From assembly GCA_964409385.1 (NCBI GenBank), contig CAYPCY010000004.1, forward strand, positions 1 to 45,982: DNA of 45,982 nt, given 5' to 3'. Positions 2,425 through 44,814 of the stretch are shown piece by piece. A model generated the notes under the pieces. It ran no database searches. It was given only the letters and a program-made list of their open reading frames with translations, and was not told the origin of the DNA. The translations under genes and the position numbers were made by a program. This DNA comes from an uncultured Methanosarcinales archaeon (lineage in GTDB: Archaea; Nanobdellota; Nanobdellia; Woesearchaeales; CAYPCY01). The first letter of the stretch is position 1; each line of letters begins with the position of its first letter.

Positions 2425-3835
2425 CGAATTAACAAAAAAAGGATATTTAGTAAGTCCTGAAATAATCATAGATTTAGAAAAAGTTGAAGCAATAGACATA
2501 GAACCAACAGAAAAATTAACCATTTTAACAAAAGAAATATTAAAAAAAACAAACATAAAATGGAAACAAGAACACACAAAAAACCCAGTAATAATAAAAA
2601 AAAACTACACAAAAATACAAGAAAAAAAAGACATGAATTCTTTCATAGAATACTATAATTCAAGATTCGCATATTTTGAAAACATTCTAAAAACAAGAAA
2701 CGAATTAAACAATCTAACATCAATCTCCAGAGCAAAAACATCCACTTCCCAAGAAATGTCCCTAATAGGAATGGTCTTAGAAAAACAAGAAACAAAAAAT
2801 AACAACATAATATTAACAATAGAAGACCAAAAAGAAAAAATAAAAATAATAATAGGGAAAAAAAACAGAGAATTACACGAAAAAGGAAAAGACATAGTAC
2901 TAGATGAAGTAATAGGAATAAAAGGAGTAACAGGAAAAAAAGTATTATTCGCAAAAGAAATAATCCTTCCAGAAGTACCAAATGAAGAAATAAAAAAAAC
3001 AACAGAAGACATACACCTAGCCTGTATAGGAGATATTCACTTCGGATCAAAACTTTTCATGAAAGAAGAATTCACAAAATTAATTTCTTGGTTTAGAGGA
3101 GAACAAGGAACAGAAGAACAAAAAAAACTAGCCGAAAAAACAAAATATATAGTACTAACAGGAGATATAATAGAAGGCGCAGGAATTTATCCAGGACAAG
3201 AAGAAGACCTAATACTCAAAAACCTAAAAGAACAATATAATTTAGCATATTATTATTTAAGTCAAATACCAAAAGATAAAAAAATAATAATTTTCCCAGG
3301 AAATCACGATTCAGGAAGATTAGCAGAACCACAAAATCCAATCTCAAAAGAATACGGAGAAAAACTATACGAACTAACAAACCTAACAAGTGTTTCAAAC
3401 CCCTCAACAGTAAACATAGCACAAACGAAAGATTTTGAAGGATTCGACCTCCTCCTATACCATGGATATTCATTCATACACTACTCAAACATAATAGAAA
3501 GAATAAGAGAAAAAGGAGGAATGGACAGAGCAGACCTAATAATGAAATTCTTACTGCAAAGAAGACATTTAGCGCCAGTCCACGAATCAAACCAATTCAT
3601 ACCCGACAAAGAATTTGATAATTTAATAATAGACATAATTCCAGACTTTTTCATAACAGGACACATACACAAAATGTCAATATCACAATATAAAAAAACA
3701 ACAATGATAAACGCATCTTGCTGGGCAAAACAATCAGAATTTCAAGAAAAAAACGGAGTCATACCACAACCAGCAAAATTACCACTTATAAATTTGAAAA
3801 CAAGAGAAGTAAAAGTACTAAATTTTGAAACATGA
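2402..3835 (+). CDS. polB: DNA polymerase D small (proofreading) subunit DP1
   Basis: OB fold followed by calcineurin-like phosphoesterase motifs GDIHFGS, GDIIEG, PGNHD, YHG, RRHLAP, TGHIH; lies between cdc6 and DP2. Confidence 0.95.
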   Translation: MTKQELINELTKKGYLVSPEIIIDLEKVEAIDIEPTEKLTILTKEILKKTNIKWKQEHTKNPVIIKKNYTKIQEKKDMNSFIEYYNSRFAYFENILKTRNELNNLTSISRAKTSTSQEMSLIGMVLEKQETKNNNIILTIEDQKEKIKIIIGKKNRELHEKGKDIVLDEVIGIKGVTGKKVLFAKEIILPEVPNEEIKKTTEDIHLACIGDIHFGSKLFMKEEFTKLISWFRGEQGTEEQKKLAEKTKYIVLTGDIIEGAGIYPGQEEDLILKNLKEQYNLAYYYLSQIPKDKKIIIFPGNHDSGRLAEPQNPISKEYGEKLYELTNLTSVSNPSTVNIAQTKDFEGFDLLLYHGYSFIHYSNIIERIREKGGMDRADLIMKFLLQRRHLAPVHESNQFIPDKEFDNLIIDIIPDFFITGHIHKMSISQYKKTTMINASCWAKQSEFQEKNGVIPQPAKLPLINLKTREVKVLNFET

Positions 3836-6800
3836 AAGAATACTTCAAAAAATTAGATAAGGATGCAAAACAAATATACCAAGTAGCAGTCCAAGCAAGA
3901 AAAAAAGGAATAGACCCAACAAGAACAGTAGAAATAACCCTTGCAAAAAATATGGCAGAAAGAGTTATTGGAATGATTTCAATAGTCGCGCCAGAAATTA
4001 AAAATTCGAAAGCGACAGAAAGAATAATAGACTTAGAAAAAGAACACGGAATTCTAGACTGGAAAGTTGCATTATTAATAGCCAAAGAAGTAGCTCAAGA
4101 AAAATTTTGCAAGTTCAAAAGTAAAAAAGAAGCAATAGAAATAGGAATAAGAACAGGATTCTCATATGTAACTGTAGGTGTTGTAAGTAGTCCATTAGAA
4201 GGATTCACAGGATTAGAAATAAAAAAAAGAAGAGACAACAAAGGAGAATACTTTTGTTTAAACTATGCAGGACCAATAAGAAATGCAGGAGGAACAGCAG
4301 CAGCAGTTTCAGCAATAATAGCAGATTACATAAGAAAAGAATTAGGATATTCAGAATATGACCCAACAGAAAAAGAAATAAAAAGATGTTATACAGAAAT
4401 AACAGATTATCACGAAAGAATAACCAACCTACAATATTTCCCCTCACAAAAAGAAACAGAATTTTTAATGAGTAATCTCCCAATAGAAATATCAGGAGAT
4501 GAAAGCGAAAAATTTGAAGTTAGTAATTATAAAGATCTTCCAAGAATAAGACAAAATAGATTAAGAAGTGGATATTGTTTAATGCACAGTTCATGCATCC
4601 CACTAAAAGCGCCAAAATTATGGAAACAACTAAATGATTGGGGCAAAGAATTCAACATGACCCACTGGAATTTCTTAGAAGAATTCATAAAAATACAAAA
4701 AGACTCACAAGCAAAAGGCGAAGAAAAAAAAGAAAAAATAAGTCCAAACCACACATACATAAAAGACATAGTTGCAGGAAGACCCGTAATAGGATATCCT
4801 ATGAGACCAGGAGGATTCCGACTAAGATATGGAAGAGGAAGATTTTCAGGATTTTCAGCACAAGCAATACATCCAGCAACAATGCAAGTCCTAGGAAATT
4901 TTGTGGCAACCGCAACACAATTAAAAGTTGAAAGACCAGGAAAAGCAGCAGCAATAACAGTTTGTGATAGCATAGATGGACCAATAGTAAAACTAAAAAA
5001 TGGAAGTGTAAAATTTTTAGAAACAGAAAAAATAGCAAAAGAATACAAAAAAGAAATTAAAGAAATATTATTCCTCGGAGATATTCTGATAAATTACGGA
5101 GATTTTCTCAACAGAGCACACGCACTAGTCCCCCCAGGATATTGTCCAGAATGGTGGATTCTAGAATTCGAAAAGAAAATAATAAACCTATTTGGAAATT
5201 TAGACTATGAAAAAACATCAGAAATAGTAAACATAGATGAAGAATCCTTAAAAATATTATTTCAAAAACCACTAAAAACAAAAATTTCTCCAAAAGCAGC
5301 ACTAAGAATATCATCAACGATGAACATCCCACTACATCCAAGATATACAAGATACTGGACACTAATAAACCTAACAGAACTAAAAAATTTAGTTGGGTGG
5401 TTATTAACAGGAAAACAAGAAGACGGAAAAATAATCCTTAACAATTCCGAAGACAAAAAAATATTGGAAAAAATAGGACTTCCACACAACCTAATAAATA
5501 AAGAAAAAATAATTATTGAAAAAAACCAAACATTAACAATATTAGCAACACTAGGCTGTTTAGAATTTGAAGATTTAGAAACAACCTTGAAAAAATTAAA
5601 AAAAGAACAAGAAGATAATATTCTGAAAATAATTAATAAACTTTCACTAATAGAAATAAGAGATAAAGCAGGAGTATTCATAGGTTCAAGAATGGGACGT
5701 CCAGAAAAGTCAAAAATGAGAAAAATGACAGGAAGCCCACACTCACTATTTCCAGTAGGAGAAGCAGGAGGAAGATTAAGAAGTTTTCAAGCAGCATTAG
5801 AAAAAGGACAAATAAAAACACCCATTTCAATATTTAACTGCAAAAAATGCGATGAAAAAACAGTATACTCCTCCTGTCCAGAATGCAATAATGAAACAGA
5901 AAGAATCTATTTTTGTAGTTCTTGCGGAGAAATAAACGAGAAAAAATGCAAAATACATGGAACAACAACACCATACAAAATAATAGATGTAGACATAAAA
6001 AAACACTTCAAACAAACCCTAAAATTATTAGGCGAAAAAGTTTATCCAGACTTAATAAAAGGAGTTAGAGGAACAACCAATGAAGAACACATACCAGAAC
6101 ATTTAAGCAAAGGAATCCTAAGAGCAAAACACAACATTTACGTAAATAAAGACGGAACAACCAGATATGATTGTTCAGAAGTTCCAATCACACATTTCAA
6201 ACCAAAAGAACTTTTTGTACCAATAGAAAAACTAAAAAAACTAGGTTATAAAAAAGACATAAACGGAAAAGAATTAGTACAAAACAATCAAATTTTAGAA
6301 TTAAAACCACAAGATATAATTCTACCTTGTCCAACAAACACAATAGACGAACCAGGTGATGAAGTCTTATTCAGAACAACAAAATTTTTGGACGAACTAC
6401 TAGTAAAAGCATACAAAATGAAACCATACTATAACTTAAAAACAAAAGAAGACCTTGTAGGACATTATGTTATAGGCCTGGCACCACACACATCAGCAGG
6501 AACACTAGCAAGAATAATAGGCTTTTCAAGAACTCAAGGTTTATTCGCACATCCACTACTACATGCAGCAATGAGGAGAGATTGCTTCACTTATGAGTCA
6601 AGAATACCAATAAAAAAAGGAAACAACTGGCGTTTAAGAAAAATAGGTTCTGTCGTTGAAGAATTAAATCCAACACAAATCGTAGATTCTTTCGAAACCA
6701 AAGAAATAAAGGTCAACAACTATAAAACTTTAGGAATAGTAGATGGAAAAGTGGAAGAAGTTGACATCAATAATTTTACAAAACATAAACCCCAAAAAAC

Positions 6801-8724
6801 AATACAAATAAAAACAAACTTAGGGAGGGAAATAGAAACAACAGAAGAACATAAACACATAACTAAAAATAATAAGATTATAAAAGCAAGAAACTTAAAA
6901 AAAGGATATTTGTTAAAAATCCCTTATAAAATAAAAATTAAGAAAAAAAACATCAAAAAAATTGATTTAATCGATTTATTTAAAGAAGAAGATTGGGGAA
7001 TGGTTCAAGGTTTAAAAAAAGAAGTTTCTGATTTTAAAAAAATACTCAAACAATACACACATAAAAACACCCACAATTATTATTCAAGAGATTCAACACC
7101 CATAAAAATAGCAAGTAAAATAATAAAAAAATACAAACTCGACAAGACAAAATTAACAATTAGTGCAAAAAGAGACAAAATCAAACTAAACCCAATAATT
7201 AAGGTAAATAAAAAATTCTTAAACATGTTGGGTTTGTATGTGGCCGAAGGATTTTCCAGGTGTAAACGAACAGGAAAAGGATACTATCAAGTTTATATTT
7301 CCGCAGAAAAAAAAGAAATCAGACGTTTCATAAAAAATCATTTTAAAACATTAGGCTTAAAACCAACAGAAAGAAAAACAGACAGGATAACATTCTCAAG
7401 TAGACTTCTTTACGAATTATTCATAAACAAGTTAAAAATGGGCTCGAACGCGCACGAAAAAAGAATGCCACAACAATTTTTAAACGCGACAAATAAACAA
7501 ATAGGCCATTTATTATCAGGATATCTGGAGGGAGATGGCTCGGTTTCAAAGACAGATCTCAGAATTTGTTTTGATACCGTCTCGAAAGGGCTTTTAAAAG
7601 ACATTGATTTCTTGTTTGCCCAACTACATATTTTTGTCAAAAACAAAACCTACACTAAACAACCCGGACAAAAATTAAAAGATTTTTATCTGAAAAAAAA
7701 CAAGCAAATTCCGGAATTCACAATAACTAAAGGAATTATACAAAGCAAGTTTGTTAAAAAAGCGAGCAAATACATTGTTTTTCTAAGTAGAAAAAAACAA
7801 AACATCTTAAATTATTTGGTCAGAAATAAAACTTTTCGAAATTTATTTCTTGAATATGACGATGAATTTTTCTTTGATGAAATAATTAGTGTAAAAACAG
7901 GAAGGAAAAAACCAAGTTATTGTCTGAATGTTCCTGGAAATAAGGTTGTTGTAAACAATATTTTAACAAAACAATGCGATGGTGATGAATCTTGTGTATT
8001 ATTACTACTAGACGCCTTCCTAAACTTTTCACAAAAATACTTGCCAAAAAAAAGAGGATCAACAATGGACGCACCAATAGTATTAACCTCAGCACTTAAT
8101 CCAGCAGAAGTAGACGATATGGTTTTTGACATGGACATAGCAACAAATTATAACTTAAACTTTTACAAAGCATGCAAAGAATACAAAATGCCATGGGACG
8201 TGAAAGTAGACAAAGTAGGAGATCATTTAGACGATGAAAAAAAATACAAAAATTACGGGTTCACCCACCCCACAGACAACATAAACGACGGCGTTCTTTG
8301 TAGTGTATACAAAACACTTCCAACAATGGAAGAAAAACTAAAAGGCCAAATGGAACTAGCAGAAAAAATAAGGGCAGTAGACACGTCAGGCGTTGCAAAA
8401 CTAGTAATAGAAAAACATTTTATAAAAGACATAAGAGGCAATTTAAGAAAGTTTTCACAACAACAATTCAGATGTGTAAAATGCAATGAAAAATTTCGAA
8501 GACCCCCCCTTTCAGGAATATGCACAAACTGCACAGGCAAAATAATTTTTACAATATCAGAAGGATCAGTAATAAAATATTTAGAACCTAGTTTAAGCCT
8601 AGCAAAAAATTACGAATTAGACGATTATATAATGCAAACATTAAACTTAACAAAACAAATGATAGAAGAAGTTTTTGGAAAAGACAAAGAAAAACAAGCA
8701 GGCCTGGGAGACTGGTTCGCATGA
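3832..8724 (+). CDS. polC: DNA polymerase D large subunit DP2 (intein-containing precursor)
   Basis: YAGPIRNAGGT, GFRLRYGR, GSRMGRPEK, GLAPHTSAG, RRD|CDGDE catalytic motif split by an intein, C-terminal Zn finger and PIP-like QAGLGDWF. Confidence 0.97.
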   Translation: MKEYFKKLDKDAKQIYQVAVQARKKGIDPTRTVEITLAKNMAERVIGMISIVAPEIKNSKATERIIDLEKEHGILDWKVALLIAKEVAQEKFCKFKSKKEAIEIGIRTGFSYVTVGVVSSPLEGFTGLEIKKRRDNKGEYFCLNYAGPIRNAGGTAAAVSAIIADYIRKELGYSEYDPTEKEIKRCYTEITDYHERITNLQYFPSQKETEFLMSNLPIEISGDESEKFEVSNYKDLPRIRQNRLRSGYCLMHSSCIPLKAPKLWKQLNDWGKEFNMTHWNFLEEFIKIQKDSQAKGEEKKEKISPNHTYIKDIVAGRPVIGYPMRPGGFRLRYGRGRFSGFSAQAIHPATMQVLGNFVATATQLKVERPGKAAAITVCDSIDGPIVKLKNGSVKFLETEKIAKEYKKEIKEILFLGDILINYGDFLNRAHALVPPGYCPEWWILEFEKKIINLFGNLDYEKTSEIVNIDEESLKILFQKPLKTKISPKAALRISSTMNIPLHPRYTRYWTLINLTELKNLVGWLLTGKQEDGKIILNNSEDKKILEKIGLPHNLINKEKIIIEKNQTLTILATLGCLEFEDLETTLKKLKKEQEDNILKIINKLSLIEIRDKAGVFIGSRMGRPEKSKMRKMTGSPHSLFPVGEAGGRLRSFQAALEKGQIKTPISIFNCKKCDEKTVYSSCPECNNETERIYFCSSCGEINEKKCKIHGTTTPYKIIDVDIKKHFKQTLKLLGEKVYPDLIKGVRGTTNEEHIPEHLSKGILRAKHNIYVNKDGTTRYDCSEVPITHFKPKELFVPIEKLKKLGYKKDINGKELVQNNQILELKPQDIILPCPTNTIDEPGDEVLFRTTKFLDELLVKAYKMKPYYNLKTKEDLVGHYVIGLAPHTSAGTLARIIGFSRTQGLFAHPLLHAAMRRDCFTYESRIPIKKGNNWRLRKIGSVVEELNPTQIVDSFETKEIKVNNYKTLGIVDGKVEEVDINNFTKHKPQKTIQIKTNLGREIETTEEHKHITKNNKIIKARNLKKGYLLKIPYKIKIKKKNIKKIDLIDLFKEEDWGMVQGLKKEVSDFKKILKQYTHKNTHNYYSRDSTPIKIASKIIKKYKLDKTKLTISAKRDKIKLNPIIKVNKKFLNMLGLYVAEGFSRCKRTGKGYYQVYISAEKKEIRRFIKNHFKTLGLKPTERKTDRITFSSRLLYELFINKLKMGSNAHEKRMPQQFLNATNKQIGHLLSGYLEGDGSVSKTDLRICFDTVSKGLLKDIDFLFAQLHIFVKNKTYTKQPGQKLKDFYLKKNKQIPEFTITKGIIQSKFVKKASKYIVFLSRKKQNILNYLVRNKTFRNLFLEYDDEFFFDEIISVKTGRKKPSYCLNVPGNKVVVNNILTKQCDGDESCVLLLLDAFLNFSQKYLPKKRGSTMDAPIVLTSALNPAEVDDMVFDMDIATNYNLNFYKACKEYKMPWDVKVDKVGDHLDDEKKYKNYGFTHPTDNINDGVLCSVYKTLPTMEEKLKGQMELAEKIRAVDTSGVAKLVIEKHFIKDIRGNLRKFSQQQFRCVKCNEKFRRPPLSGICTNCTGKIIFTISEGSVIKYLEPSLSLAKNYELDDYIMQTLNLTKQMIEEVFGKDKEKQAGLGDWFA
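6583..7974 (+). mobile_element. Intein with LAGLIDADG homing endonuclease in DP2 (464 aa)
   Basis: Starts CFTYES after AMRRD; block B TEEH; LAGLIDADG motifs LGLYVAEG and LSGYLEGDGS; ends NNILTKQ before extein CDGDE. Confidence 0.95.
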
Positions 8725-9179: not shown

Positions 9180-10124
9180 ATGAGTGAAATCTGGACTGAA
9201 AAGTATAGACCAAAGACAATTTCTGAAATAAAAGGACAGAAAACAATAGTAGAAAGAGCAAAATCATTTGTAAAAAAACAAAATTTGCCACATTTACTAT
9301 TTGCAGGACCTCCAGGAACAGGAAAAACAACACTATCCCTAGCAATATCCAGAGAATTATTTGGAAAAGAACGAAAAGGAAACTTTCTAGAATTAAACGC
9401 ATCAGACGAAAGGGGAATAGATGTCATAAGAGTAAAAGTTAAAGATTTTGCAAGAACAAAATCCTTAAGTGAAATACCCTTCAAAATAATATACTTGGAC
9501 GAGTCAGACGCACTAACAAGAGAAGCACAACAAGCATTAAGAAGAACAATGGAGAAATACTCCCAAACATGCAGATTTATTTTAAGTTGCAATTATAGCA
9601 GTAAAATAATAGAGCCAATACAAAGCAGATGTACAGTATTCAGGTTTAAACCAGTAGAAAATAACCAATTAGAAGAATTAATAAAAGAAATCGCCAGAAA
9701 TGAAAATTTTCAAATAGACAATGACGCAATAAAAATATCAATTGAATTATCAGAAGGTGACGTCAGAAAACTAGAAAATTTATTACAAGCAAGCACAATG
9801 TCAAATAAGAACATAACAAAAGAAGTATTATATGAAATTTCAACACAAGCCAGTCCTGAAAAAATAAAAGAAATATTAATTAAAGCAATAAATAAAGAAT
9901 TTGTAGAAGCAAAAAAACTAATGTTCAAAACAATCCTAGAAGATGGTCTTTCAGGAATTGACTTCATCAAACAATTAACAAAAGAAATTTGGAATTTAGA
10001 TATAGAAAATAATAAAAAGCTTAAGATAATAGAAAGTGCAGGAGAGATAGAATTCAGAATAGTAGAAGGAAGCGATGAACAAATCCAACTCGCCGCGTTA
10101 ATGGCAAAAATTTCAAGTTTATAA
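9180..10124 (+). CDS. rfcS: Replication factor C small subunit
   Basis: WTEKYRP, GPPGTGKTT, LELNASDERGIDVIR, LDESDALT, SRC motif; no intein. Confidence 0.97.
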   Translation: MSEIWTEKYRPKTISEIKGQKTIVERAKSFVKKQNLPHLLFAGPPGTGKTTLSLAISRELFGKERKGNFLELNASDERGIDVIRVKVKDFARTKSLSEIPFKIIYLDESDALTREAQQALRRTMEKYSQTCRFILSCNYSSKIIEPIQSRCTVFRFKPVENNQLEELIKEIARNENFQIDNDAIKISIELSEGDVRKLENLLQASTMSNKNITKEVLYEISTQASPEKIKEILIKAINKEFVEAKKLMFKTILEDGLSGIDFIKQLTKEIWNLDIENNKKLKIIESAGEIEFRIVEGSDEQIQLAALMAKISSL

Positions 10125-10143: not shown

Positions 10144-10470
10144 ATGGAAGAAGAAACAATCCCTGATGTTAGCGAAATACAACCATTAGTAGACTTCACT
10201 AAAAACACACAACCACAAAAACCACACCCATCACTAATAGCAGACAAGAGTTTCGAAGCAAAAACAAAATTAATCAGCCTATTAAATTCCGAAATAAAAA
10301 CAAAATCACTGCTAGTTTCAGAACTTCATGATACGCTAGAATTAATGAAAAAGAAAATAATCTCGCTAGAAAATGCACTAAAATTAGTAGAAGAAGAAAA
10401 CATACTACTAACTGTTAAGAACCAATACTTGAAAGAACAAGTTGACCTAATAACTAAGTCAAGCTCTTAA
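10144..10470 (+). CDS. Hypothetical coiled-coil protein
   Basis: 108-aa ORF with heptad-like C-terminal half; codon style matches neighbouring genes. Confidence 0.6.
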   Translation: MEEETIPDVSEIQPLVDFTKNTQPQKPHPSLIADKSFEAKTKLISLLNSEIKTKSLLVSELHDTLELMKKKIISLENALKLVEEENILLTVKNQYLKEQVDLITKSSS

Positions 10471-11371
10471 CAAGAATAGAATTCTGTAAAGTTTTTTCAT
10501 AAGCAAAACCCAAACTAATGTCAATAGGTTTAATATAATCTCCAGGTTGAGAAATTTGCTGTTGACACCTAATAATTTTCTCTCCAGACTGAAGCCTAAC
10601 CAAACCATGAGTTCCCTCACTCAACCCATTACAAAACAAACTACCTTCAATACCTGTAGTTACAGTAACGTAAACCCTATCATCAGCATTCACATTATCT
10701 GCATCACACAAACTATCCTTAGAAAAAACAACTCCAGAACCAAGATGTTTCACAGTAAAAGAAAATGCAGTAGTATCCTCACTAACAGGAGATTGTCTTA
10801 AGCTAACAACTTGAATAGGAGATGAAGAACTATGAACAATCTTTTCCCCCCTATTAGAACAAACAGTCTCGTCAGAATCTAAATTATCTTCCTTAATACA
10901 AAGATCAGAAACAACACCAGTTCCATAATTATAACAAGCATCAATTACAAATTCAAAATTTCTATTACCAGCCAGAGATTCCATATAATTAAGACCTGAA
11001 AAACTCAATGTAGTAAAAGTTCCAGGAAGCACATCACCACTATCAGGATCTTTCTTAGTCTCTTCCAAATTAGCTTCAACACTCTTAGTAAAAGCAGAAG
11101 AATCAACCCCAAAAGCAGCAGCTTCTAAACCACGAAGTTTAAACTGTGTTTCATCCATAGGAACATAATGTTCGCCCAAATTTTCAATCTCTAAAGTAAT
11201 ATCGAAAGAAGACTGTCCAGAATCATAAGTTTCTGAAGGTGGTTCTCCCTCAAGGAATGCAATTCCCAAACTAGAACTTCCTCCAATAAAAGGAGATTCT
11301 GTATTCAAACCAGGCTCACTACCACAAGCAGCAAGCAAAAAACTCATAACTATTAAATATTGTAATTTCAT
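10454..11371 (-). CDS. Putative lipoprotein, DPANN Cys-containing beta-sandwich family (paralog 3)
   Basis: Start reassigned to ATG 11371 (SD GAGGTTGA); signal peptide with lipobox LAAC; shares motifs F..PP, CY.Y.T...C, P..V, GSG with two neighbours. Confidence 0.8.
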   Translation of the reverse strand: MKLQYLIVMSFLLAACGSEPGLNTESPFIGGSSSLGIAFLEGEPPSETYDSGQSSFDITLEIENLGEHYVPMDETQFKLRGLEAAAFGVDSSAFTKSVEANLEETKKDPDSGDVLPGTFTTLSFSGLNYMESLAGNRNFEFVIDACYNYGTGVVSDLCIKEDNLDSDETVCSNRGEKIVHSSSSPIQVVSLRQSPVSEDTTAFSFTVKHLGSGVVFSKDSLCDADNVNADDRVYVTVTTGIEGSLFCNGLSEGTHGLVRLQSGEKIIRCQQQISQPGDYIKPIDISLGFAYEKTLQNSILVKSLT

Positions 11372-11381
11372 ATTATCAACC

Positions 11382-12665
11382 TCAAATCTTTTTAATACTA
11401 ATCCTCTTTTGTATTTCTTGACGATAAGCATAACCTAATTCAATAAATAAAGGAGTTTCATAAGCAGACACTTGACCAGTCCAATCCATATCAAACTCGC
11501 ACATCACCTGACCACGACCATTAACAAGCCTAACTTCCCTGCCAGGAGTACACTTCAACTGAACACCAGAAAGTCTAATATCTTCAATATAAACAGTGTT
11601 TAAATCAAGAGGAGAAACTAATTTATCATAATAAGGACTACACTTATTAATTCTATAATAATCATAAATAGTACCTGGACCTACATTCTCAATAAAAATA
11701 TTAAAAAATACTTTCTTAGGAGTGGTTTCTTGATCTATCTTAGTAACAGCAACAGGAGCACCCTGCCCACCACCAACAGACTGAGATCTCAAAGGAACAC
11801 ACGCCTTCTTTTGATTACTATAAGGATTAGGATCCACACAAACCGAAGGAGTAGCAACAGTAGCATACAAGTAACAACTAGTAATTTGCAAATTAGGATT
11901 ATAATCAGTCATGCCCTCAGGCATATTCTCAACCCATCCAGAAAAATCAATATTAACCCGCTCACCACCATAATAATTATTATTATTACCATTAATAACT
12001 CTTGTTTTAGCAAGTTTATCAGCAAAACTACCAAGTATTATAGCGCCCTTAATCATAAATCTTGCCCCCTTCTCAAAACTATTGCTAATAAACGCAAGAT
12101 TATCATTTGTAGCCTGCCAAGAAACTTCACCATCAGCATATTCAATATTCAAATCCAAATCACCTAACCAAGAACAACCACTACCTTCACCAGTCAAGGA
12201 ATCGCAAAGATTCTCAAAAAAATCAAGATTATTAATATTAATACTACTCCACCAATCAGAACCCTCACCCAAATTCCCTAAGAAGACATTACCCCAATTA
12301 CAATCAGCACCCAATCTATTAAAATCTTGAAAATAATCAATGGTAAAGTCACAATCTGCAGCAGAAGGTTGTCCAGGATCAATACCCTCAATTTTAATCA
12401 TTGAAGGATCAAAACCAGAAATGTAAAAATTACTAACAGTAGTTATGGCACCAACATTATGGGCCTCAACCAAGACAGGAAAGGTATTTTCATCACCCTC
12501 ACTAACATAAATAGTTGGAGGAGGCATATTATCAATAAATCTCATCCGAATACCTTCAGAACCTCTAAAGAAATCTTCTTGAGTTCCAGGCTCTCGAGTT
12601 CCAGGAGTACAAGAAACAATAAAAACTAGAAAAATCGCAAGTAAGAATAAAAATTTGAATTTCAT
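11382..12665 (-). CDS. Putative lipoprotein, same family (paralog 2) with acidic Cys/Trp insertion
   Basis: MKFKFLFLLAIFLVFIVSC lipobox; GSEGIRMRFIDNMPP, CYLYATV, GGQGAPVAVTK, ELGYAY. Confidence 0.8.
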   Translation of the reverse strand: MKFKFLFLLAIFLVFIVSCTPGTREPGTQEDFFRGSEGIRMRFIDNMPPPTIYVSEGDENTFPVLVEAHNVGAITTVSNFYISGFDPSMIKIEGIDPGQPSAADCDFTIDYFQDFNRLGADCNWGNVFLGNLGEGSDWWSSININNLDFFENLCDSLTGEGSGCSWLGDLDLNIEYADGEVSWQATNDNLAFISNSFEKGARFMIKGAIILGSFADKLAKTRVINGNNNNYYGGERVNIDFSGWVENMPEGMTDYNPNLQITSCYLYATVATPSVCVDPNPYSNQKKACVPLRSQSVGGGQGAPVAVTKIDQETTPKKVFFNIFIENVGPGTIYDYYRINKCSPYYDKLVSPLDLNTVYIEDIRLSGVQLKCTPGREVRLVNGRGQVMCEFDMDWTGQVSAYETPLFIELGYAYRQEIQKRISIKKI

Positions 12666-12760
12666 TATCCTTTTTTGGGTTCTTTACACTATATAAAATT
12701 TTTGCTAACAAATTTTAAATGTAGGATCATAAGTTCTAATTATATTCTTTTTTTTAAAAA

Positions 12761-13705
12761 CTAGTTTCTTCTAACAACAGTAACTTCCTTACTTTCCTGA
12801 TCAAAATAACCATATTCTGCAACAACCCTCAAAAAACGAGAATAAGCAGCACCACCCCTAGCAAAATTTTCAGAAGTCTTCGCAATACACCTGATTGAAG
12901 GTTCAGGAGAATTCAATCTAACAATACCATTACTATAACACTCAAGCTCCTCACCAGACAAGTAAGCCCTGACTTTCACAACATGCCAAGCATCAATATC
13001 AATACTCTGACCAGAACAAACATTCAAAACTTCAGTATTTTCAACAACAGTACCAGAACCAACATTACTAAAATAAATTTTAAAATAAGGTTTTATTAAA
13101 TCCCCTTCTGAAAAAAAATCAGTTTCTAATTTAGTGACAGCAACAGGACCGCCCTGACCTTTAGCAAATTTTTCATCAGTAGTTTCACAAGGTTGGGCTT
13201 GTAAATCACTACCTAATTCACTTCTCTGCACACAAATATCATCAGTAAAGACAGTCCTATAATTATAGCAAGAAACAGCACTAATTGTAGTAGAAGGATT
13301 TTGTAATTGACCATGCAATTCCTTACTTTTCATATTATAATTAGTATAAACTTCACCACCCAAAGGAAACTCAACAGATTTTCCAGGAATACTCTGCTGA
13401 AGATTAAATAAACTACCTAATTGTGAAAAGAAACTAGCATCACTATTTTCCATTGTAAAATATAAACTATCATAATTAATCTTATGATATAATTCAGAAA
13501 CATTACTCGCGCCCCGATTCTTCAAAATTACATGAATAGTGAAAGGCTCATTCTCAGGAATTTCAGAAGGTGGAGAATTTTTAGCAAAATCAATGATCAA
13601 ACCATCCTCTCCCTCAAGATAATTAATATCAAAACTACTCGGGCCAGAATTACCACAAGATACTAAAAAAAAACTAACAAAAACAACAAAAAATAACTTA
13701 TTCAT
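12761..13705 (-). CDS. Putative lipoprotein, same family (paralog 1)
   Basis: Start reassigned to ATG 13705; lipobox LVSC; GEDGLIIDFAKNSPP, CYNYRTV, GQGGPVAVTK, EYGY. Confidence 0.8.
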   Translation of the reverse strand: MNKLFFVVFVSFFLVSCGNSGPSSFDINYLEGEDGLIIDFAKNSPPSEIPENEPFTIHVILKNRGASNVSELYHKINYDSLYFTMENSDASFFSQLGSLFNLQQSIPGKSVEFPLGGEVYTNYNMKSKELHGQLQNPSTTISAVSCYNYRTVFTDDICVQRSELGSDLQAQPCETTDEKFAKGQGGPVAVTKLETDFFSEGDLIKPYFKIYFSNVGSGTVVENTEVLNVCSGQSIDIDAWHVVKVRAYLSGEELECYSNGIVRLNSPEPSIRCIAKTSENFARGGAAYSRFLRVVAEYGYFDQESKEVTVVRRN

Positions 13706-15302
13706 TCTCAACAGGCACCTCAATAACATTAATAACTTTATAACTTGAAACTTCATAAGTATAATCAACATCCACCAATAAAGTTCTAGTATTCAAAGAA
13801 CCAATCAACAATGAAGGAACATCAACAACCCTAAACCAACAATTAATAGTTTTAAAACTATTCTTAACAACAGAAATATCATTAAAAACATAAGCAGTAT
13901 AACCTTCATCATAAACTCTCATATCAGAAACAGCAACACCAGAACAAGAATCAATTTCCAACTCATTAGGCAATGCAAAAACTAACTCATTAATTTTTAA
14001 TAATCTACCATTATGCCAATCAGGATCAAGAGTCACTCCAAAAACTCTTGTTTCAATATTATTCTCAACACCCAAAGGTTGACTTCCTGAATTAATACCT
14101 ATTTTCAAAGGTCCCGGTGTGTAAATTGCCATTGGTTCTTCAGGAACGTCAAGCTCTCTATTAACATCAACACCTTCCCTCCTGTAACTATTAAGTAATT
14201 CTTGGCTAATAAAATGGAAAGGAACATACGCCAGAGTGTTAAAATCAAAAGTGCTCTTAAAATTAACTTTATACTGTCCCTTTTCACGACCACTCAAAGC
14301 ACATTCTAAATTTCTAAAATCTTCTCGAATAATAGAAAAACTTTCAGGTCTAATAATACCAACTTCAAGAACAGACGTACCTTTAGAAAGACTACATTCA
14401 TTAACAACATTAATTTCTTCATCTTCCAATGTGCTAGCAGTAATATCTGCCCAAACAATCAAAGGAGAATTCTCATAAATTACCGAATCGAGAGTTTCAA
14501 TATTAGAAATTTTAACACCTAACGCCATATATCTTCCCTGTTCAACCTTTCCCTTATACTTTTCACCAGTCAATTCCGCCAAAGTTCTATTAATAAATTC
14601 TCCAGGATCAGGAAGATCTGGGAAAACAATTTTATCTCCCAAATCAGAAAATGCACCACTAACAAATTTCCAAGTATCACCAATAACACTAGACGCATCA
14701 ACACTATAACTTCCAGTATCTAAATTATCCAAACCGAGTTTGCTAATTGCAAAAACAATAGCAACAATAACCCAAGCTAAAAGAATAATAAGCATTGCTT
14801 GCTTAATTAATTCGCTCTTAATCAAATCCTGTCTAACAATAAAGAATAAAAACCAGGCAGGAAAGAAAACAAGAACGAAATCAACACCAGGAACTTCAAT
14901 AAAAGTTCTTAATAAAGGAATAAAAACGGCAATAGCAGAAGGAATTAAGAAAACACCCCAATTTTTCAAGATTTCAGTAACACCCTTTGCCTTAGTAAAA
15001 ATGAAAACTGCAAGTAATGCAAGAAATAAATAAGCTAGAACAAAAATATAAACTTGTCCTCCACCTCTTTGAAAACCCGCATAAAAATCGTAAAAATGAA
15101 GCCCAAATAATGCAATGAAGAAAATAGATTCTTTAACATCTAATTTTTTAGTAAAAAATCCATAACCTATGAAAAAACCAAGTCCGAAAACAATTCCACC
15201 AACTAAACCACCCATAAAATAACCAAGTATGAAACCAAAAAAAACAAAAATTAAACCGTGCCAATTACTACTATTGTTGGATGGAAGAACAATAGGATTC
15301 AT
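13698..15302 (-). CDS. Polytopic membrane protein with large extracellular beta-rich C-terminal domain
   Basis: About 6-7 hydrophobic segments in the first 190 aa; C-terminal region with FDFNT, PGPL.IGI and VDYTY echoes the lipoprotein paralogs. Confidence 0.75.
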   Translation of the reverse strand: MNPIVLPSNNSSNWHGLIFVFFGFILGYFMGGLVGGIVFGLGFFIGYGFFTKKLDVKESIFFIALFGLHFYDFYAGFQRGGGQVYIFVLAYLFLALLAVFIFTKAKGVTEILKNWGVFLIPSAIAVFIPLLRTFIEVPGVDFVLVFFPAWFLFFIVRQDLIKSELIKQAMLIILLAWVIVAIVFAISKLGLDNLDTGSYSVDASSVIGDTWKFVSGAFSDLGDKIVFPDLPDPGEFINRTLAELTGEKYKGKVEQGRYMALGVKISNIETLDSVIYENSPLIVWADITASTLEDEEINVVNECSLSKGTSVLEVGIIRPESFSIIREDFRNLECALSGREKGQYKVNFKSTFDFNTLAYVPFHFISQELLNSYRREGVDVNRELDVPEEPMAIYTPGPLKIGINSGSQPLGVENNIETRVFGVTLDPDWHNGRLLKINELVFALPNELEIDSCSGVAVSDMRVYDEGYTAYVFNDISVVKNSFKTINCWFRVVDVPSLLIGSLNTRTLLVDVDYTYEVSSYKVINVIEVPVENE

Positions 15303-16426
15303 TCTATTTCAATCTTCAACTCAACAATGTTCAAAGTACCATCAGGAATGATTTGTAAGCCGTTCGATCCCTCCTCTAAAAAGTCTGAAATTTCTTTTTC
15401 ATATTCAAGTTCTGATTGATCAATTCGTGTAGTAATACCATTTATAACAATATCTCCTTGTTTTCTAGTATCATCATCTACAAATCTAATACTTAAAGTA
15501 ATTTGTTCATTAAGTTGTTCTTCAGAAACTTCAAAATAATAAACAGAATAAATAGGTTCTTCAAGTTCAGTATTTATAAGAGTTTGTTCAATAGTATAAT
15601 GTCCTGTGGTTTTGAATTGGATATTATTTGTTCCAGTAATATATTCTTTAGGAAGATCAAATAAATTAAAACCAGAACAGTCAGGAGATCCAGAATAAAC
15701 AGTTTTACCATTAAGAGTTATTTCTAAAAGACCATCTTTTATTTTACTACAAACAAATCTAAAACGAGCCTTTTCAATTGCAGCAAGTTCGGAATCAGTT
15801 ACAACAAAATTATGTTCAGCAAAAGATGCAGAATCATCAATAATATTTCCTGTAATTTTAAACATTTCAAGATAATGCTTATTAACCCTCCAAAATTTCC
15901 AACCAGGACTTTTAGTTTCAACAAATAAATTATTTTCAGAATCTAAATATTCTAAATCAATAGGACCTACATTTCCAGAAGCAGGACCTGTATAAATATT
16001 CTTACCATTAAATGAAATGCTTAAATCTCCAAGAAAATCTTTACCATTAAAACTCAATATTGGTTTTTCAACAACTCCTCTAAATTGAAAATTAATAGAC
16101 TCTGTCTTATCCGAAAATAAAGAATTCCTAGTATATACATAAGGGAATTCTTTAATAATTGCTGCTTCAGACTTTACATACAAAGAAAATGCAGGCAAAG
16201 AATGTTCAACAAAACTAGCTCCAGGATCTAATAAGGTTCCGGGAGTTTCTAATAATAAAACAGATTCCTCTTCAGAATCTGAATCACCAGTATTGCCAGT
16301 ATCATTAATACCTAATAAATCATCCCTATCTCCAGGAGGAAGAAATAAAATATATAGTAGAATAACAACAGCTATTATAAGAACTAAAAGCGCCGCGTCT
16401 CCTCCTGAAGTCTGACCTTTTTTCAT
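15299..16426 (-). CDS. Class III (prepilin-type) signal peptide protein
   Basis: MKKG|QTSGGDAALLVLIIAVVILLYILFL, followed by repeated beta-rich jelly-roll-like segments. Confidence 0.75.
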   Translation of the reverse strand: MKKGQTSGGDAALLVLIIAVVILLYILFLPPGDRDDLLGINDTGNTGDSDSEEESVLLLETPGTLLDPGASFVEHSLPAFSLYVKSEAAIIKEFPYVYTRNSLFSDKTESINFQFRGVVEKPILSFNGKDFLGDLSISFNGKNIYTGPASGNVGPIDLEYLDSENNLFVETKSPGWKFWRVNKHYLEMFKITGNIIDDSASFAEHNFVVTDSELAAIEKARFRFVCSKIKDGLLEITLNGKTVYSGSPDCSGFNLFDLPKEYITGTNNIQFKTTGHYTIEQTLINTELEEPIYSVYYFEVSEEQLNEQITLSIRFVDDDTRKQGDIVINGITTRIDQSELEYEKEISDFLEEGSNGLQIIPDGTLNIVELKIEIE

Positions 16427-16475
16427 AGACTAAACAATACTTAATTTTATATATAAGCTTTTCTGTTCGTAAACT
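16427..16475. promoter_or_regulatory. Compact divergent promoter (TATA TTTTATATATAA)
   Basis: 49-bp gap between divergent genes with a central TATA usable in both directions. Confidence 0.55.
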
Positions 16476-17468
16476 ATGAGAATTCTAACCAAAAATTTTA
16501 AAGAATTTGTAAAATTAATTCCTGAAAACTATGATGATTTATTACTAATTCAAGAAAATTTAAACAAGCAAGACATGGTTAAAGGTATTGCTTATAGAAA
16601 AGTAAATTTAGCAGGAAAGGAAGATAAATCAAAAACTGTAAAGAAAAAATATTTTTTAACAATAGAAGTTGAAAAAACGGAATTAAAAGATAACTTAAAA
16701 ATAATAGGCAAAATAAGAAATGCTCCGAAAGATTTGCCTGAAGGTGCAATCCAATCAATAAATATAGATTTAGAAGATGAAATAAGAATAAGTAAAGAAT
16801 GGCAAGATTATGAAATAAATTTTTTAAAAGAGGCAATAAAGAAGAAAAGAAAAATTCTAATTGTTGCTTTTGATAGTGAAGAAGCAAATTTTGCAAAAAT
16901 TAGTGGAAATATGAAGAAGATAATTCTAAAACTAAAAGGAGTAGGAAACAAAAAACAATTCAAGATTGAAAAATCAAATTTTTTTAAAGAAATTAATAAG
17001 TCTATAAACGAAATCACTAAACAAGAAACTTTTGATAGTATAATTCTCGCATCGCCCAATTTTTGGAAGAAAAATATGCAAGAATCATTAAATACTGAAT
17101 TAAAGAAAAAAATAATTTTTGCAACAATATCAACAGGTAAGCCAGCAGGAATAGATGAAACTTTGAAAAGACCAGAATTAAAAAAAGCAATGGAAACAGC
17201 AAATTGTGCTGAAGAACAAATTCTTTTTGAAGAAGTTATGAAAAAAATTTCAAAAGAAGAAGCAGTTTATGGAATGAAAGACATAAAAAAAGCAATAGAC
17301 TATGGTGCTGTTGAAACATTAATACTTTCAAAATCATTAATTAAAGAAAGAATATTAATACAAAAAGCAGAATCTGCAAAGTGCAAAATAAAAATATTTT
17401 CTTCAGAAGTAAAAGAAAAACTAGATAATCTGGGTGGAATTGCAGCAATCTTAAGATTCAGAATTTAA
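16476..17468 (+). CDS. pelA: mRNA surveillance protein Pelota (Dom34)
   Basis: VKLIPENYDDL, IILASPNFWK, AVYGMKDIKKAIDYGAVETL, LGGIAAILRF. Confidence 0.92.
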   Translation: MRILTKNFKEFVKLIPENYDDLLLIQENLNKQDMVKGIAYRKVNLAGKEDKSKTVKKKYFLTIEVEKTELKDNLKIIGKIRNAPKDLPEGAIQSINIDLEDEIRISKEWQDYEINFLKEAIKKKRKILIVAFDSEEANFAKISGNMKKIILKLKGVGNKKQFKIEKSNFFKEINKSINEITKQETFDSIILASPNFWKKNMQESLNTELKKKIIFATISTGKPAGIDETLKRPELKKAMETANCAEEQILFEEVMKKISKEEAVYGMKDIKKAIDYGAVETLILSKSLIKERILIQKAESAKCKIKIFSSEVKEKLDNLGGIAAILRFRI

Positions 17469-17924
17469 GTAATTAACTGTTTGAGGAATTAAGAAAGAAA
17501 TAACATATGCTAAAGCAGGAAAAATACCTCTATTTTTAATAAAATCAAAATTTTCAGCAAATAAATTACTTACAGTGAAAAAAATAAAGAATGCAGATAT
17601 AGGAACAAAAAACAAAGAAAAAGTCTTATCAGAACTAGACCTATCTAATTCATTAAGAATTAAAGCAAAAACAGTCCCGAACAATATGCCTGCTATCAAA
17701 ACCATCGAATAAAGAACGAAAGTATCTCCTGCAATCATTAAAGGAATAAGCAATAATGCAAAAGCGAAATTACCCACGATAACAACAAATAAAACCAACC
17801 AATAAATTACATCTTCAAAAGTATTTTTTTTACTTTTTTCTCTTTTCAAAATTTCTTTAGTCTTTTTAATATCTTCTTCAGACCATCCTCTCATCAAATA
17901 CCTATCTTCAGAAAATTTAACCAT
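17451..17924 (-). CDS. Hypothetical membrane protein (4 TM)
   Basis: N-terminal RGWSEEDI helix, then four hydrophobic segments; overlaps upstream gene. Confidence 0.7.
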   Translation of the reverse strand: MVKFSEDRYLMRGWSEEDIKKTKEILKREKSKKNTFEDVIYWLVLFVVIVGNFAFALLLIPLMIAGDTFVLYSMVLIAGILFGTVFALILNELDRSSSDKTFSLFFVPISAFFIFFTVSNLFAENFDFIKNRGIFPALAYVISFLIPQTVNYLNSES

Positions 17925-18351
17925 TTTTTACAGTTTCAGAAACAAAAGTATAAAACTCTTTTAACAAAGCATAATATTCGCCCATCCTGTCAATATTCAA
18001 TTTTAATTCTTCATTGTCAACAGTGCATATAAGAGCTACATGTCGTCTATATTCACATTCTCTAGAGTGTTCTGCTTTCAATACTCTTCTTAACAAAAGA
18101 TATAATTTAATATTTTCTTGAACAAGTTCTTCTTTGAATTTTTCTCGAACAATTTCTGCTTTAGCAATAGGAGAAGAAGTTTCATTATCAAAAGTTTTAA
18201 TTAAAGAGCTAACCAAAAATTCATATGAAGAAACCATTCTTTTTACAACATTATAAATGACATCACCAGTTCTAGTATATTTTAAGCTTACAAAAATTAA
18301 ATGATCAACACGTTTTAGTTCATCCTTCGCGTTTTTCAAATTTTCAATCAT
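17917..18351 (-). CDS. Conserved hypothetical helical protein (HEPN-like?)
   Basis: AKDELKRVDHLIFVSLKYTRT...EYRRHVALIC; paralog of the upstream ORF. Confidence 0.7.
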   Translation of the reverse strand: MIENLKNAKDELKRVDHLIFVSLKYTRTGDVIYNVVKRMVSSYEFLVSSLIKTFDNETSSPIAKAEIVREKFKEELVQENIKLYLLLRRVLKAEHSRECEYRRHVALICTVDNEELKLNIDRMGEYYALLKEFYTFVSETVKNG

Positions 18352-18806
18352 TCTATAATTTCACCACAATGTACAACTAGTAATCTTCCCAAATTAATAT
18401 AGTTTTTTATTTGTGAAACATTTATTGTTCTCATTTGATAACTTTCATTACAAATAACAAATTTATCTCGTCTCGAAAATTCAATAGGAGATTTTTTATG
18501 TTCTCGAATTATATCATGTAATATTCTTAAAAGTCGAACTTCATCCTTATTTAAATTATATTTAGGAGAAACTCTGTCCTTAAATATAGAATAAGCATGA
18601 TTAAAATTATTGGTAAATATAGGAATTCGTTTATACTTTCTTTCAAAATTCAAGACTGAAAACATGGCATAATTACACCCTTTAAACAAATTATTCACAA
18701 CAGCAACTAATATTTTAGGATCTTTAATTAAAGGATATGTTTGTGTTAACATATGATCTGCAGCTTTAACCTTGCACCGGGCTTGATAAATTAATGGTTC
18801 ATCCAT
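18348..18806 (-). CDS. Conserved hypothetical helical protein (HEPN-like?)
   Basis: ARCKVKAADHMLTQTYPLIKDPK...EFSRRDKFVIC; start reassigned to ATG 18806. Confidence 0.7.
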   Translation of the reverse strand: MDEPLIYQARCKVKAADHMLTQTYPLIKDPKILVAVVNNLFKGCNYAMFSVLNFERKYKRIPIFTNNFNHAYSIFKDRVSPKYNLNKDEVRLLRILHDIIREHKKSPIEFSRRDKFVICNESYQMRTINVSQIKNYINLGRLLVVHCGEIIE

Positions 18807-18837
18807 TATTAAAATAGAGTTTTGAGGGTATAAAAAC

Positions 18838-19173
18838 TTAATCATTCAAAGAAATAATAGCCTCAGCGATATCTCCTTGCGAGGTTTCTAAAGCTTTCAA
18901 AGCGGAATCTTCAGAACAATTTGCTTGATCCATCACTGTTTTAATATCTTCTTCAGTTATTTCAAACCTTTCAGAACTTTCTTCAGTAATACTTCCTGAA
19001 ATTTGAAAATTGTCAGTACCTTGCATCTTAATTTTAGAAACTGAAGGATTATTGATTATGATGTTTTTATCAGCACATTTAATAATAACTTGAGAAGCAA
19101 CTATTTCTTCTTGGCTAATGCCAAGTTTTCTCATCATTTGTTTTGCTTGTCTTGGATTAACACCAGGAATCAT
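18838..19173 (-). CDS. nac: Nascent polypeptide-associated complex protein
   Basis: MIPGVNPRQAKQMMRKLGI...EEDIKTVMDQA...GDIAEAI (NAC + UBA); start ATG 19173 with SD GGTGTGA. Confidence 0.93.
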   Translation of the reverse strand: MIPGVNPRQAKQMMRKLGISQEEIVASQVIIKCADKNIIINNPSVSKIKMQGTDNFQISGSITEESSERFEITEEDIKTVMDQANCSEDSALKALETSQGDIAEAIISLND

Positions 19174-27855: not shown

Positions 27856-28443
27856 TTATTCTAGGATTTTAATTTTTCCTTGTTTAATCTCAAACAATTC
27901 TCCTTCCAACAATAAATTATTTATTTTTGATTCGCAATTTTCTATTTTTGAAGTTTTCACAATTTCATTAATGTCAACCCCTTCTCCAGAATCTAAAATT
28001 CTTATAGTGTTAAGAATTGTTTCGTAAATATTTGAATTCTCTTTAGGTTTTATTTTTTCTAACTCTTCTTTTTTTGGTGTTTTAATATTTATTAGTTCGA
28101 ATTTTCTTATTTTTAACCAATCGTTAGTGTTTAAAACATTTAAAATTTCTGCGACAACATATTTTTCTGTATTTGATTCTCTTAAACTACCAATTATTAA
28201 AACAGGTTTACTAATAGCAAGATTTTTTGGTTGGTTGAATGTTTTTACTATTATGCTTCCGGTTCCGTCATCTACAACTAATTGATTTTTATCAATGCTA
28301 ACAATTAAAGCTATAAGATTAATTTTTAACACTTGAATGTTGTTAAAATTAAAATAGCTTAGTTCCCAACCTGGTTTTCTAATTAAAGAAGCGTTTAGTA
28401 AATCTTTTATCCTTACTTTTGTGGCTGTTGGACGTTCAAGCAT
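27856..28443 (-). CDS. OB-fold ssDNA-binding protein, RPA32-like with C-terminal wH
   Basis: R.TATKVRI, VDDGTGSI, C-terminal LLLEGELFEIKQG. Confidence 0.8.
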   Translation of the reverse strand: MLERPTATKVRIKDLLNASLIRKPGWELSYFNFNNIQVLKINLIALIVSIDKNQLVVDDGTGSIIVKTFNQPKNLAISKPVLIIGSLRESNTEKYVVAEILNVLNTNDWLKIRKFELINIKTPKKEELEKIKPKENSNIYETILNTIRILDSGEGVDINEIVKTSKIENCESKINNLLLEGELFEIKQGKIKILE

Positions 28444-44665: not shown

Positions 44666-44715
44666 AAGCAAAATTTATATACGAAATAAATCAGGGATTT
44701 ATCGGTATTAAAACC

Positions 44716-44725
44716 TTTTTTTTTT
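44716..44725 (+). terminator. Oligo-T terminator
   Basis: T10 tract about 50 bp after the stop, preceded by a weak hairpin. Confidence 0.55.
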
Positions 44726-44814
44726 CAAAAGTTACTAAACACAAGATGTTTAGAACTTAGAAATTCGTTGTATTTCGCAAGTTTTAAATAGTAATTAATA
44801 AAAGGTAAATAATA

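Follow-up and report, generated by a model that had tools for sequence, protein, structure and literature searches.

Woesearchaeales are abundant and uncultured archaea, and to our knowledge nothing is known experimentally about their cell envelope. Which proteins could organise the surface of such a cell? We addressed this question for a stretch of 45,982 nucleotides (nt) of Woesearchaeal DNA (hereafter the window; contig CAYPCY010000004.1, assembly GCA_964409385.1), which carries a cluster of five adjacent genes at 10454–16426. A previous reading of the bare sequence (the original prediction) had proposed that this cluster encodes an uncharacterised, disulfide-stabilised envelope system of several different subunits, such as a pilus base, an S-layer-like lattice or a structure for host contact. 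Our analysis agrees that the system is uncharacterised: no family annotation was obtained for any of the five proteins. The protein families of the cluster are unannotated and their building blocks are ordinary. The cluster is conserved in gene order across related genomes, and our tentative reading is that it contributes a core structural element to the envelope of Woesearchaeal cells.

A cluster of five exported proteins

The five genes, termed G1, G2, L1, L2 and L3, are arranged as follows:

15299–16426, minus strand: G1, 375 amino acids (aa), N-terminally anchored protein with three ~100-aa repeats (from the open reading frame, ORF)
13698–15302, minus strand: G2, 534 aa, multi-pass membrane part followed by two beta-sandwiches (from the ORF and an AlphaFold2 (AF2) model)
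12761–13705, minus strand: L1, 314 aa, lipobox LVSC, orthogroup p1
11382–12665, minus strand: L2, 427 aa, lipobox IVSC, orthogroup p2
10454–11371, minus strand: L3, 305 aa, lipobox LAAC, orthogroup p3

As had been claimed, the genes share one orientation and mostly overlap or abut. G1 and G2 overlap by 4 nt and G2 and L1 by 8 nt (ATGAATAA), the start codon of L1 overlapping the stop codon of G2. A gap of 95 nt separates L1 from L2, and one of 10 nt, with GAGG upstream, separates L2 from L3. The ORF of L1 is open to 13771, but its start was set at 13705, where the 314-aa form equals a database protein (P0001). Likewise, the ORF of L3 is open to 11431, and its start was set at 11371, which fits the family alignments. 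Across 49 of the related loci described below, the median of the G2–L1 junction is −4 nt, with 88% of these junctions at 10 nt or less, while the other junctions have medians of 42–54 nt (54 nt for L1–L2).

All five products carry export and anchor signals, in the form of an N-terminal helix, a multi-pass domain or a lipobox cysteine, and every ectodomain that was modelled or aligned consists of beta-sandwich modules. The isoelectric points of the five proteins lie between 4.4 and 5.1, and those of seven of the eight cytoplasmic proteins of the window between 8.1 and 9.5.

None of G1, G2, L1, L2 and L3 had a threshold-level match in Pfam or NCBIfam. Scanning 32 G2 and 49 L2 orthologues one by one revealed no recurrent family, any single family being matched by at most two of the 32 or one of the 49. 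Profile searches of PDB sequences gave chance-level matches only, and searching phage genomes by tblastn with L2 and G1 gave no match. With the AF2 models of L1 and G2, Foldseek found only generic tandem immunoglobulin (Ig)-like matches in the PDB; the lowest E-value was 2.8e-6 with L1 and 2.0e-7 with G2. The best of these were the legs (thigh and calf) of integrin alpha, complement MG domains, RbmA and the C-terminal domains of AglB; the top match in a viral library was a DUF11 protein. Since template modelling scores (TM-scores) did not exceed 0.29 and identities were 7–14%, the likeness to such tandem Ig-like ectodomains, DUF11 repeats among them, signifies a common topology only and permits no functional inference. 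The ESM Atlas returned only unnamed clusters from Woesearchaeota and Nanobdellota, together with a lead to DUF7383 at 0.78. Literature searches of limited coverage found no paper that describes the cluster.

Three ancient lipoprotein orthogroups

The lipoboxes proposed for three of the proteins (LVSC, IVSC and LAAC) are present in the window translations. The colinear motif series that these proteins were said to share was confirmed by BLASTP (E = 5e-14 for L1–L2, 4e-17 for L1–L3 and 7e-9 for L2–L3) and by a three-way alignment. The alignment has 40 invariant columns, including seven cysteines (the lipobox cysteine and six more) and the motifs CY.Y.T....C, P.V, G.G, L.C, VRL and Y. Judged by these scores, L1, L2 and L3 are true paralogues, with a likeness beyond chance.

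The AF2 model of L1 (predicted local distance difference test (pLDDT) 76.6, predicted TM-score 0.73) consists of two beta-sandwich domains joined at GQGGPVAVTK. L2 has two domains like those of L1, plus an insert of ~120 aa in domain 1. L3 is the most divergent paralogue, and the junction motif in its family consensus reads NSGAPIQIT. An origin of the two domains as an internal repeat was unsupported (hhalign 8–14%). An exhaustive profile search revealed a large family, in which the number of cluster representatives was 3260 at E ≤ 1e-3 and fell to 2546 at E ≤ 1e-10 and to 1612 at E ≤ 1e-30; a word-index search retrieved 11 lipoprotein relatives.

The lipobox cysteine is invariant in four family alignments of homologues. 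The strict pattern [L/V/I][A/S/T/V/I][G/A/S]C, preceded by a hydrophobic signal region and following the motif definition quoted in PMC12462473, was found in 125 of 150 lipoprotein orthologues, and the misses that were inspected carry variants such as FFGC, IAGC and LQAC. L1–L3 carry this lipobox and are predicted lipoproteins, a class of protein reported to be prevalent in DPANN archaea (PMC12462473).

The relationships among the three paralogues were analysed in a sample of related loci. A G1 profile yielded 101 confirmed loci in a species-level genome collection, 80 of which were kept. The cluster is complete on one strand in 51 of these, 21 are cut by a contig end and eight are true exceptions. 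The order G1–G2–L1–L2–L3 is thus complete in 51 of 59 informative loci, and the conservation that was to be checked by profile range and neighbourhood is clearly present. Lipoproteins are split by frameshifts in two of the 51 complete loci. In all 50 intact clusters (49 loci and the window), position-specific hidden Markov models assigned the lipoproteins to orthogroups in the order p1–p2–p3. A tree of 78 lipoproteins from 26 clusters, calculated with IQ-TREE, is perfectly partitioned by position: it requires two changes, which is the minimum, and none of 200 shuffles scored as low. Branch support in the Shimodaira–Hasegawa-like approximate likelihood ratio test was 99 for p3 and 75 for p1. 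A FastTree phylogeny of 150 lipoproteins also splits by position. By these phylogenies, the three lipoproteins are three ancient, non-redundant orthogroups in fixed order.

The window was expected to come from a DPANN-type lineage, and the relatives of the cluster agree with this. They are titled Woesearchaeota, Nanoarchaeota or Nanobdellota, and all loci are of DPANN type by title or synteny.

Some database titles deviate. Twenty-four loci (L003, L006, L009 and others) are titled ‘uncultured Methanosarcinales archaeon’ and one (L050) ‘Alphaproteobacteria bacterium’. The cluster is complete in most of these loci, and their lipoproteins interleave with Woesearchaeota-titled ones in the trees; the flank of L050 also holds a TrmB gene. 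The Methanosarcinales and Alphaproteobacteria titles are probably placeholders or mark mis-binned contigs.

In Haloferax, lipidation of archaeal lipoproteins depends on AliA and AliB. An association of AliA with SpoIIM has been reported (PMC12462473). A 195-aa ORF (27856–28443, minus strand) between the SpoIIM and MCM genes of the window was considered as AliA and rejected, as its product looks soluble, is unrelated by eye and matched no family. The window yielded no candidate for AliA.

G2 shares a domain with the lipoproteins

The AF2 model of G2 (mean pLDDT 80.3, above 90 in the beta domains) comprises membrane helices (residues 14–189), linker helices (203–256) and two beta-sandwiches (262–366 and 399–527). 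From the loops rich in lysine and arginine, we read the modelled topology as about seven transmembrane helices, with the N-terminus inside and the C-terminus outside. A crude hydropathy count found four or five strong segments in 40 of 50 G2 orthologues; the stretch that follows the last segment has a median length of 389 residues. In the homologue alignment the invariant positions are G262, C303, C334, G397, P398, G432, P445, C453, C488 and Y514, which include four cysteines in the beta-sandwiches. The transmembrane region is moderately conserved, with H69 present in 72% and D72 in 73% of filled rows. Two close relatives of G2 were found by word-index search, and 72 homologues by jackhmmer over the fetched loci.

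The C-terminal part of G2 had been described as carrying a weaker version of the lipoprotein motifs. With deep profiles this held for the last beta-sandwich and failed for the first (2.4%). Shallow profiles gave no support for a relation between G2 and the lipoproteins (hhalign probability 0.2–44%). When 72 G2 rows were aligned with 150 lipoprotein rows, the last domain of G2 matched lipoprotein domain 2 with a probability of 87.9% (E = 3.2e-6, 110 columns), and the motifs GPV, N.G, C, C and Y.Y occur in identical order in both. Adding G2 domain 2 to the lipoprotein tree resulted in four clean groups and three changes, again the minimum. By profile comparison, the last domain of G2 and lipoprotein domain 2 are distantly homologous, so that four of the five cluster proteins have one domain in common.

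G1 is an anchored repeat protein

G1 starts with MKKGQ, followed by one hydrophobic helix, an acidic low-complexity linker and three tandem repeats of ~100 aa. The repeats were related to each other by hhalign (a–b 96.7%, E = 3.8e-10; b–c 94.9%, E = 4.5e-8). One hydrophobic segment is present in 80 of 81 homologues. An alignment of 30 homologues shows two conserved cysteines and an invariant motif, YILFLPP.ER..LL, which closes the hydrophobic helix. No kinship with the other cluster proteins was detected: a shallow hhalign comparison of G1 with a three-sequence lipoprotein profile gave nothing, and the G1 ectodomain scored 0.6–1.7% against the lipoproteins or G2. At least 64 relatives of G1 are among the matches listed, all of them ‘hypothetical’ where named.

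About a third of the G1 homologues are ~560 aa long and contain a cysteine-rich insert of ~170 aa between repeats 2 and 3 (L013, L014, L019, L027, L030, L035, L037 and others; P0048, P0057 and P0062). NCBIfam assigned no family to this insert.

The neighbourhood is stable and the cluster evolves slowly

Recurrent neighbours in the 80 loci are the genes for Pelota (60 loci, divergent), TrmB (43), the RFC small subunit (37, convergent) and FmrO (27), the subunits of phenylalanyl-tRNA synthetase (26 and 22), topoisomerase VI and others. In the window, the neighbouring genes lie at 9180–10124 on the side of the RFC small subunit and at 16476–17468 on the side of Pelota. Given the divergent Pelota gene beside G1 (60 loci) and the convergent RFC gene after L3 (37 loci), the gene order is unusually stable for proteins with ~35% identity.

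The claim that no ATPase or TadC gene is present proved correct, as regards a type IV pilus ATPase and a TadC-type platform, for the five cluster proteins and for 37 other ORFs of the window. A type IV pilus ATPase, platform protein or A24 peptidase was found neither in the 46-kb window nor in the 33 flank families that occur in at least five of the 80 loci. The recurrent flank families also contain no secretion or energising component and no processing protease.

The median identity of the window proteins to those of the loci is 33% for G1, 32% for L2, 31% for L3, 27% for L1 and 25% for G2; the controls are Pelota (35%), TrmB (51%) and RFC (58%). By this measure the cluster diverges about as slowly as Pelota.

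Cysteines and glycosylation sites

The counts of conserved cysteines (six in the mature lipoproteins, four in G2 and two in G1) fit the proposed stabilisation by disulfides. Lipoprotein precursors mostly have odd totals, as given by the lipobox cysteine plus pairs, and G1 totals are even in 92%.

L2 and L3 of the window contain no N-X-S/T sequon. In the L2 orthologues, 2 sequons occur in 18,295 residues, compared with 142 ± 11 in shuffled sequences, and 48 of 50 proteins have none. The L3 orthologues have 9 versus 114 ± 8, with none in 42 of 50. For the remaining components, with a weaker depletion in L1 and G1, the observed and shuffled counts are 72 and 166 (L1), 93 and 205 (G1) and 151 and 204 (G2). 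The near absence of sequons from the L2 and L3 orthogroups suggests selection against N-glycosylation.

An envelope scaffold is the preferred reading

What might these proteins build? We propose, with a probability of about 0.35, that the cluster encodes a self-assembling, membrane-proximal, hetero-oligomeric scaffold on the outer face of the cytoplasmic membrane. That the proteins form a hetero-oligomer is plausible, given three ancient orthogroups in fixed order and the compact G2–L1 junction. G2 would be the membrane-embedded nucleus of the complex. L1, whose start codon overlaps the stop codon of G2, would dock on G2. The other pseudo-equivalent positions would be taken by L2 and L3, in a complex that was once a homo-oligomer and became a hetero-oligomer. 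Each subunit would be stiffened by intramolecular disulfides. G1 would stand on its acidic stalk, with the three repeats reaching outward to act as a strut or spacer, for instance towards a separate outer layer. We propose that assembly needs no ATPase and would therefore be spontaneous after Sec export and lipidation. If nearly all of the surface of L2 and L3 were buried in contacts or against the membrane, this could account for the near absence of N-glycosylation sites.

A more far-reaching version of this proposal, which we consider doubtful, is that Woesearchaeales-type DPANN archaea possess an energy-independent surface machine of their own, without counterpart among the pili, S-layers and secretion systems described so far. 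One multi-pass subunit and three lipid-anchored paralogues would form a pseudo-symmetric ring or lattice unit with the stalked repeat protein as its cap, and the whole would act as the principal envelope organiser or as a fixed port for contact and exchange of material between the symbiont and its partner.

Several observations weigh against the scaffold. Its structural role is inferred by exclusion. Among the exceptional loci, L011 and L065 lack p2, L049 lacks p3, L021 retains only p1, and nothing but G1 is present in L058, L072 and L080. The flanking housekeeping genes are syntenic too, so the conservation of the cluster is in part general synteny, and synteny alone may reflect a generally static region of the genome. 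Sequon counts scatter in the controls (64 observed versus 85 shuffled for Pelota, 125 versus 47 for RFC and 9 versus 45 for TrmB); with such scatter and with related rows, sequon depletion is no clean test, and it is the size of the effect that counts. Correlations of distance residuals between cluster proteins range from 0.13 to 0.65, and only that of G2 with L1 (0.65) exceeds the maximum of the RFC control; with this control reaching 0.51, the test of rate covariation is not discriminating. A report on a Woesearchaeota metatranscriptome names archaellin genes, and also genes annotated separately as ‘S-layer protein’, among those most highly expressed (PMC11606122). A separate wall protein may therefore exist, and the cluster need not be the main wall layer.

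The scaffold shares with archaeal S-layers and their anchors a make-up of acidic, membrane-tethered surface proteins rich in beta-sandwiches, and Sulfolobus SlaB is an example of an S-layer membrane anchor. The Haloferax glycoprotein has a lipid anchor, a mode of attachment already described for an S-layer protein (PMC5744192). A classical S-layer, close to one of the options of the original prediction, is nevertheless not supported. S-layers are described as consisting of one or two proteins (PMC5744192), whereas five conserved components are present here; S-layer glycoproteins are N-glycosylated, but sequons are nearly absent from L2 and L3. No S-layer family in Pfam or NCBIfam matched any of the five proteins.

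Host contact, exchange and filaments

The complex could instead be the conserved base of an episymbiont attachment or exchange site, on which lineage-specific inserts in G1, G2, L1 and L2 confer host specificity. The relatives are DPANN-type archaea, every part is surface-exposed, and the conserved core carries large inserts that vary: the length of G2 lies between 490 and 1319 aa and that of L1 between 306 and 909 aa, and G1 exists in forms of ~390 aa and of ~560 aa, the latter with the cysteine-rich insert. The core, however, diverges about as slowly as Pelota, a pace at which the idea of a fast-evolving, host-specific adhesin finds no footing, and almost every informative locus, across many environments, retains the cluster. 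As neither a secretion or energising component nearby nor a link to any host was found, we regard host contact as unlikely. A conduit for uptake or exchange, in which the multi-pass part of G2 is a channel and the lipoproteins bind or gate a substrate that an archaeon of reduced genome must scavenge, such as lipids, appears rather improbable. The apparent translational coupling of multi-pass G2 to lipoprotein L1 would suit it, and so would the fact that one helix has an H..D pair at its outer end (~72% of filled rows), but the membrane part of G2 contains no invariant residue and the beta-sandwich matches are generic. No transporter family matched the 32 G2 homologues, no transporter gene is among the recurrent flank families, and an ATPase or permease partner was absent from the window and the recurrent flanks. 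ABC-type solute-binding proteins differ on the same counts: their families are matched neither by the five proteins (Pfam, NCBIfam) nor by the 49 L2 orthologues, and adjacent permease and ATPase genes were not found here.

Filaments offer two further explanations. The lipoproteins could act like pilins and build a fibre without an ATPase, their strands being exchanged as in bacterial type V pili or, by donor-strand complementation, as in archaeal threads; G2 or one lipidated paralogue would anchor it. Type V pilins are built of two beta-sandwiches, and here a lipobox is present in three of three window lipoproteins and two beta-sandwiches in the AF2 model of L1. The type V (Fim/Mfa) pili of Bacteroidia are described as products of five-gene clusters as well, with lipoprotein precursors, several of them paralogous, and one membrane anchor subunit (PMC8512630), and archaeal threads are reported to assemble without PibD (PMC9715654). 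Yet the FimA and Mfa families of Pfam matched neither the window proteins nor the 49 L2 orthologues, and no type V pilin or thread subunit is among the Foldseek PDB matches listed for the L1 and G2 models. All three paralogues retain the lipobox, no gingipain-type or other processing protease was found nearby, multi-pass G2 and the N-anchored repeat protein G1 are extra, and type V pili use an outer membrane, which archaea lack; the present archaeon has a single membrane. Such a fibre is very unlikely. A place for the cluster in a type IV pilus or bindosome-like structure, whose assembly machinery would be encoded elsewhere, seems more far-fetched still. The prepilin-type start (KKG/Q) noted for G1 does exist: after a short basic N-terminus, [KR][GAS]Q precedes the hydrophobic helix in at least 66 of 81 homologues, and [KR] at −2, [GAS] at −1 and Q at +1 of this putative cleavage site agree with positions said to matter for archaeal signal peptidase III (PMC3387779). 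In addition, the archaellin expression reported for some Woesearchaeota (PMC11606122) implies that class III processing may exist in some members. Against this, G1 is a 375-aa protein of three repeats in which 6–8 small or polar residues separate the Q from the hydrophobic stretch, and conservation is strongest at the far helix end (YILFLPP), not at the putative cleavage site. No pilin or archaellin N-terminal model of Pfam or NCBIfam matched G1 at E ≤ 1, and the defining ATPase, platform and peptidase are missing from the 46 kb and the recurrent flanks; a pilus base, as originally suggested, finds support in neither result. A 2026 survey also describes type IV filaments as widespread in archaea except Asgard and DPANN (PMC13705601). 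For type IV filaments, type V pili, S-layers and solute-binding proteins alike, at least one defining feature failed.

The large unannotated families, with 3260 lipoprotein cluster representatives, and the presence of the cluster in nearly every informative related locus give it weight beyond this window. Should the scaffold or the contact platform be correct, the cluster would be a concrete target for cryo-electron tomography, proteomics and antibody labelling, a lineage marker, and a natural example of a hetero-oligomer that arose from an ancient lipoprotein triplication. The avoidance of sequons in L2 and L3 offers a testable clue to which archaeal surface proteins must stay free of glycans.

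Candidate promoters and other features of the window

Two stretches of the cluster may have regulatory functions:

16445–16456, minus strand: TATA-like box TTATATATAAAA, 19–30 nt upstream of the G1 ATG
12689–12760, minus strand: L1–L2 spacer, with a T5 run directly after the L1 stop codon and TATA-like box TTTTATATAG

The first box lies in the 49-nt divergent spacer common to G1 and the Pelota gene and is a possible promoter of a leaderless G1 transcript. The second box sits 24–33 nt upstream of the L2 ATG, and the L1–L2 spacer could combine an internal terminator (the T5 run) with a promoter.

At the other end of the cluster, an ORF of 108 aa (10144–10470, plus strand) is convergent with L3 and shares 17 nt with its 3′ end. 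Its YabA-like match is weak and far below the cut-off (E = 4.8e-4, 20.5 bits versus 142). Beyond the Pelota side, 17451–18845 (minus strand) contains three overlapping small ORFs (157, 144 and 165 aa) without a Pfam or NCBIfam family, the first of which has hydrophobic segments.

The rest of the window, which has a guanine and cytosine (GC) content of ~30%, holds archaeal information-processing genes, encoding Cdc6, both PolD subunits, RFC, Pelota, NAC, Hjc, EndA, FEN1, PAN, MCM and TBP. The large subunit of PolD (3832–8724, plus strand, 1630 aa) contains an apparent intein with two LAGLIDADG-like blocks, roughly at residues 918–1382 by eye.

Three consecutive cysteine-rich proteins with signal peptides are encoded at 39018–45982 (plus strand), a stretch of higher GC content (0.34) and strong positive GC skew. 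The first has 1074 aa and 55 cysteines, with a match to an acidic double-disulfide repeat below the cut-off, the second has 808 aa and 49 cysteines with a MopE-type motif, and the third has more than 389 aa and 38 cysteines. The three proteins are candidates for another surface layer.

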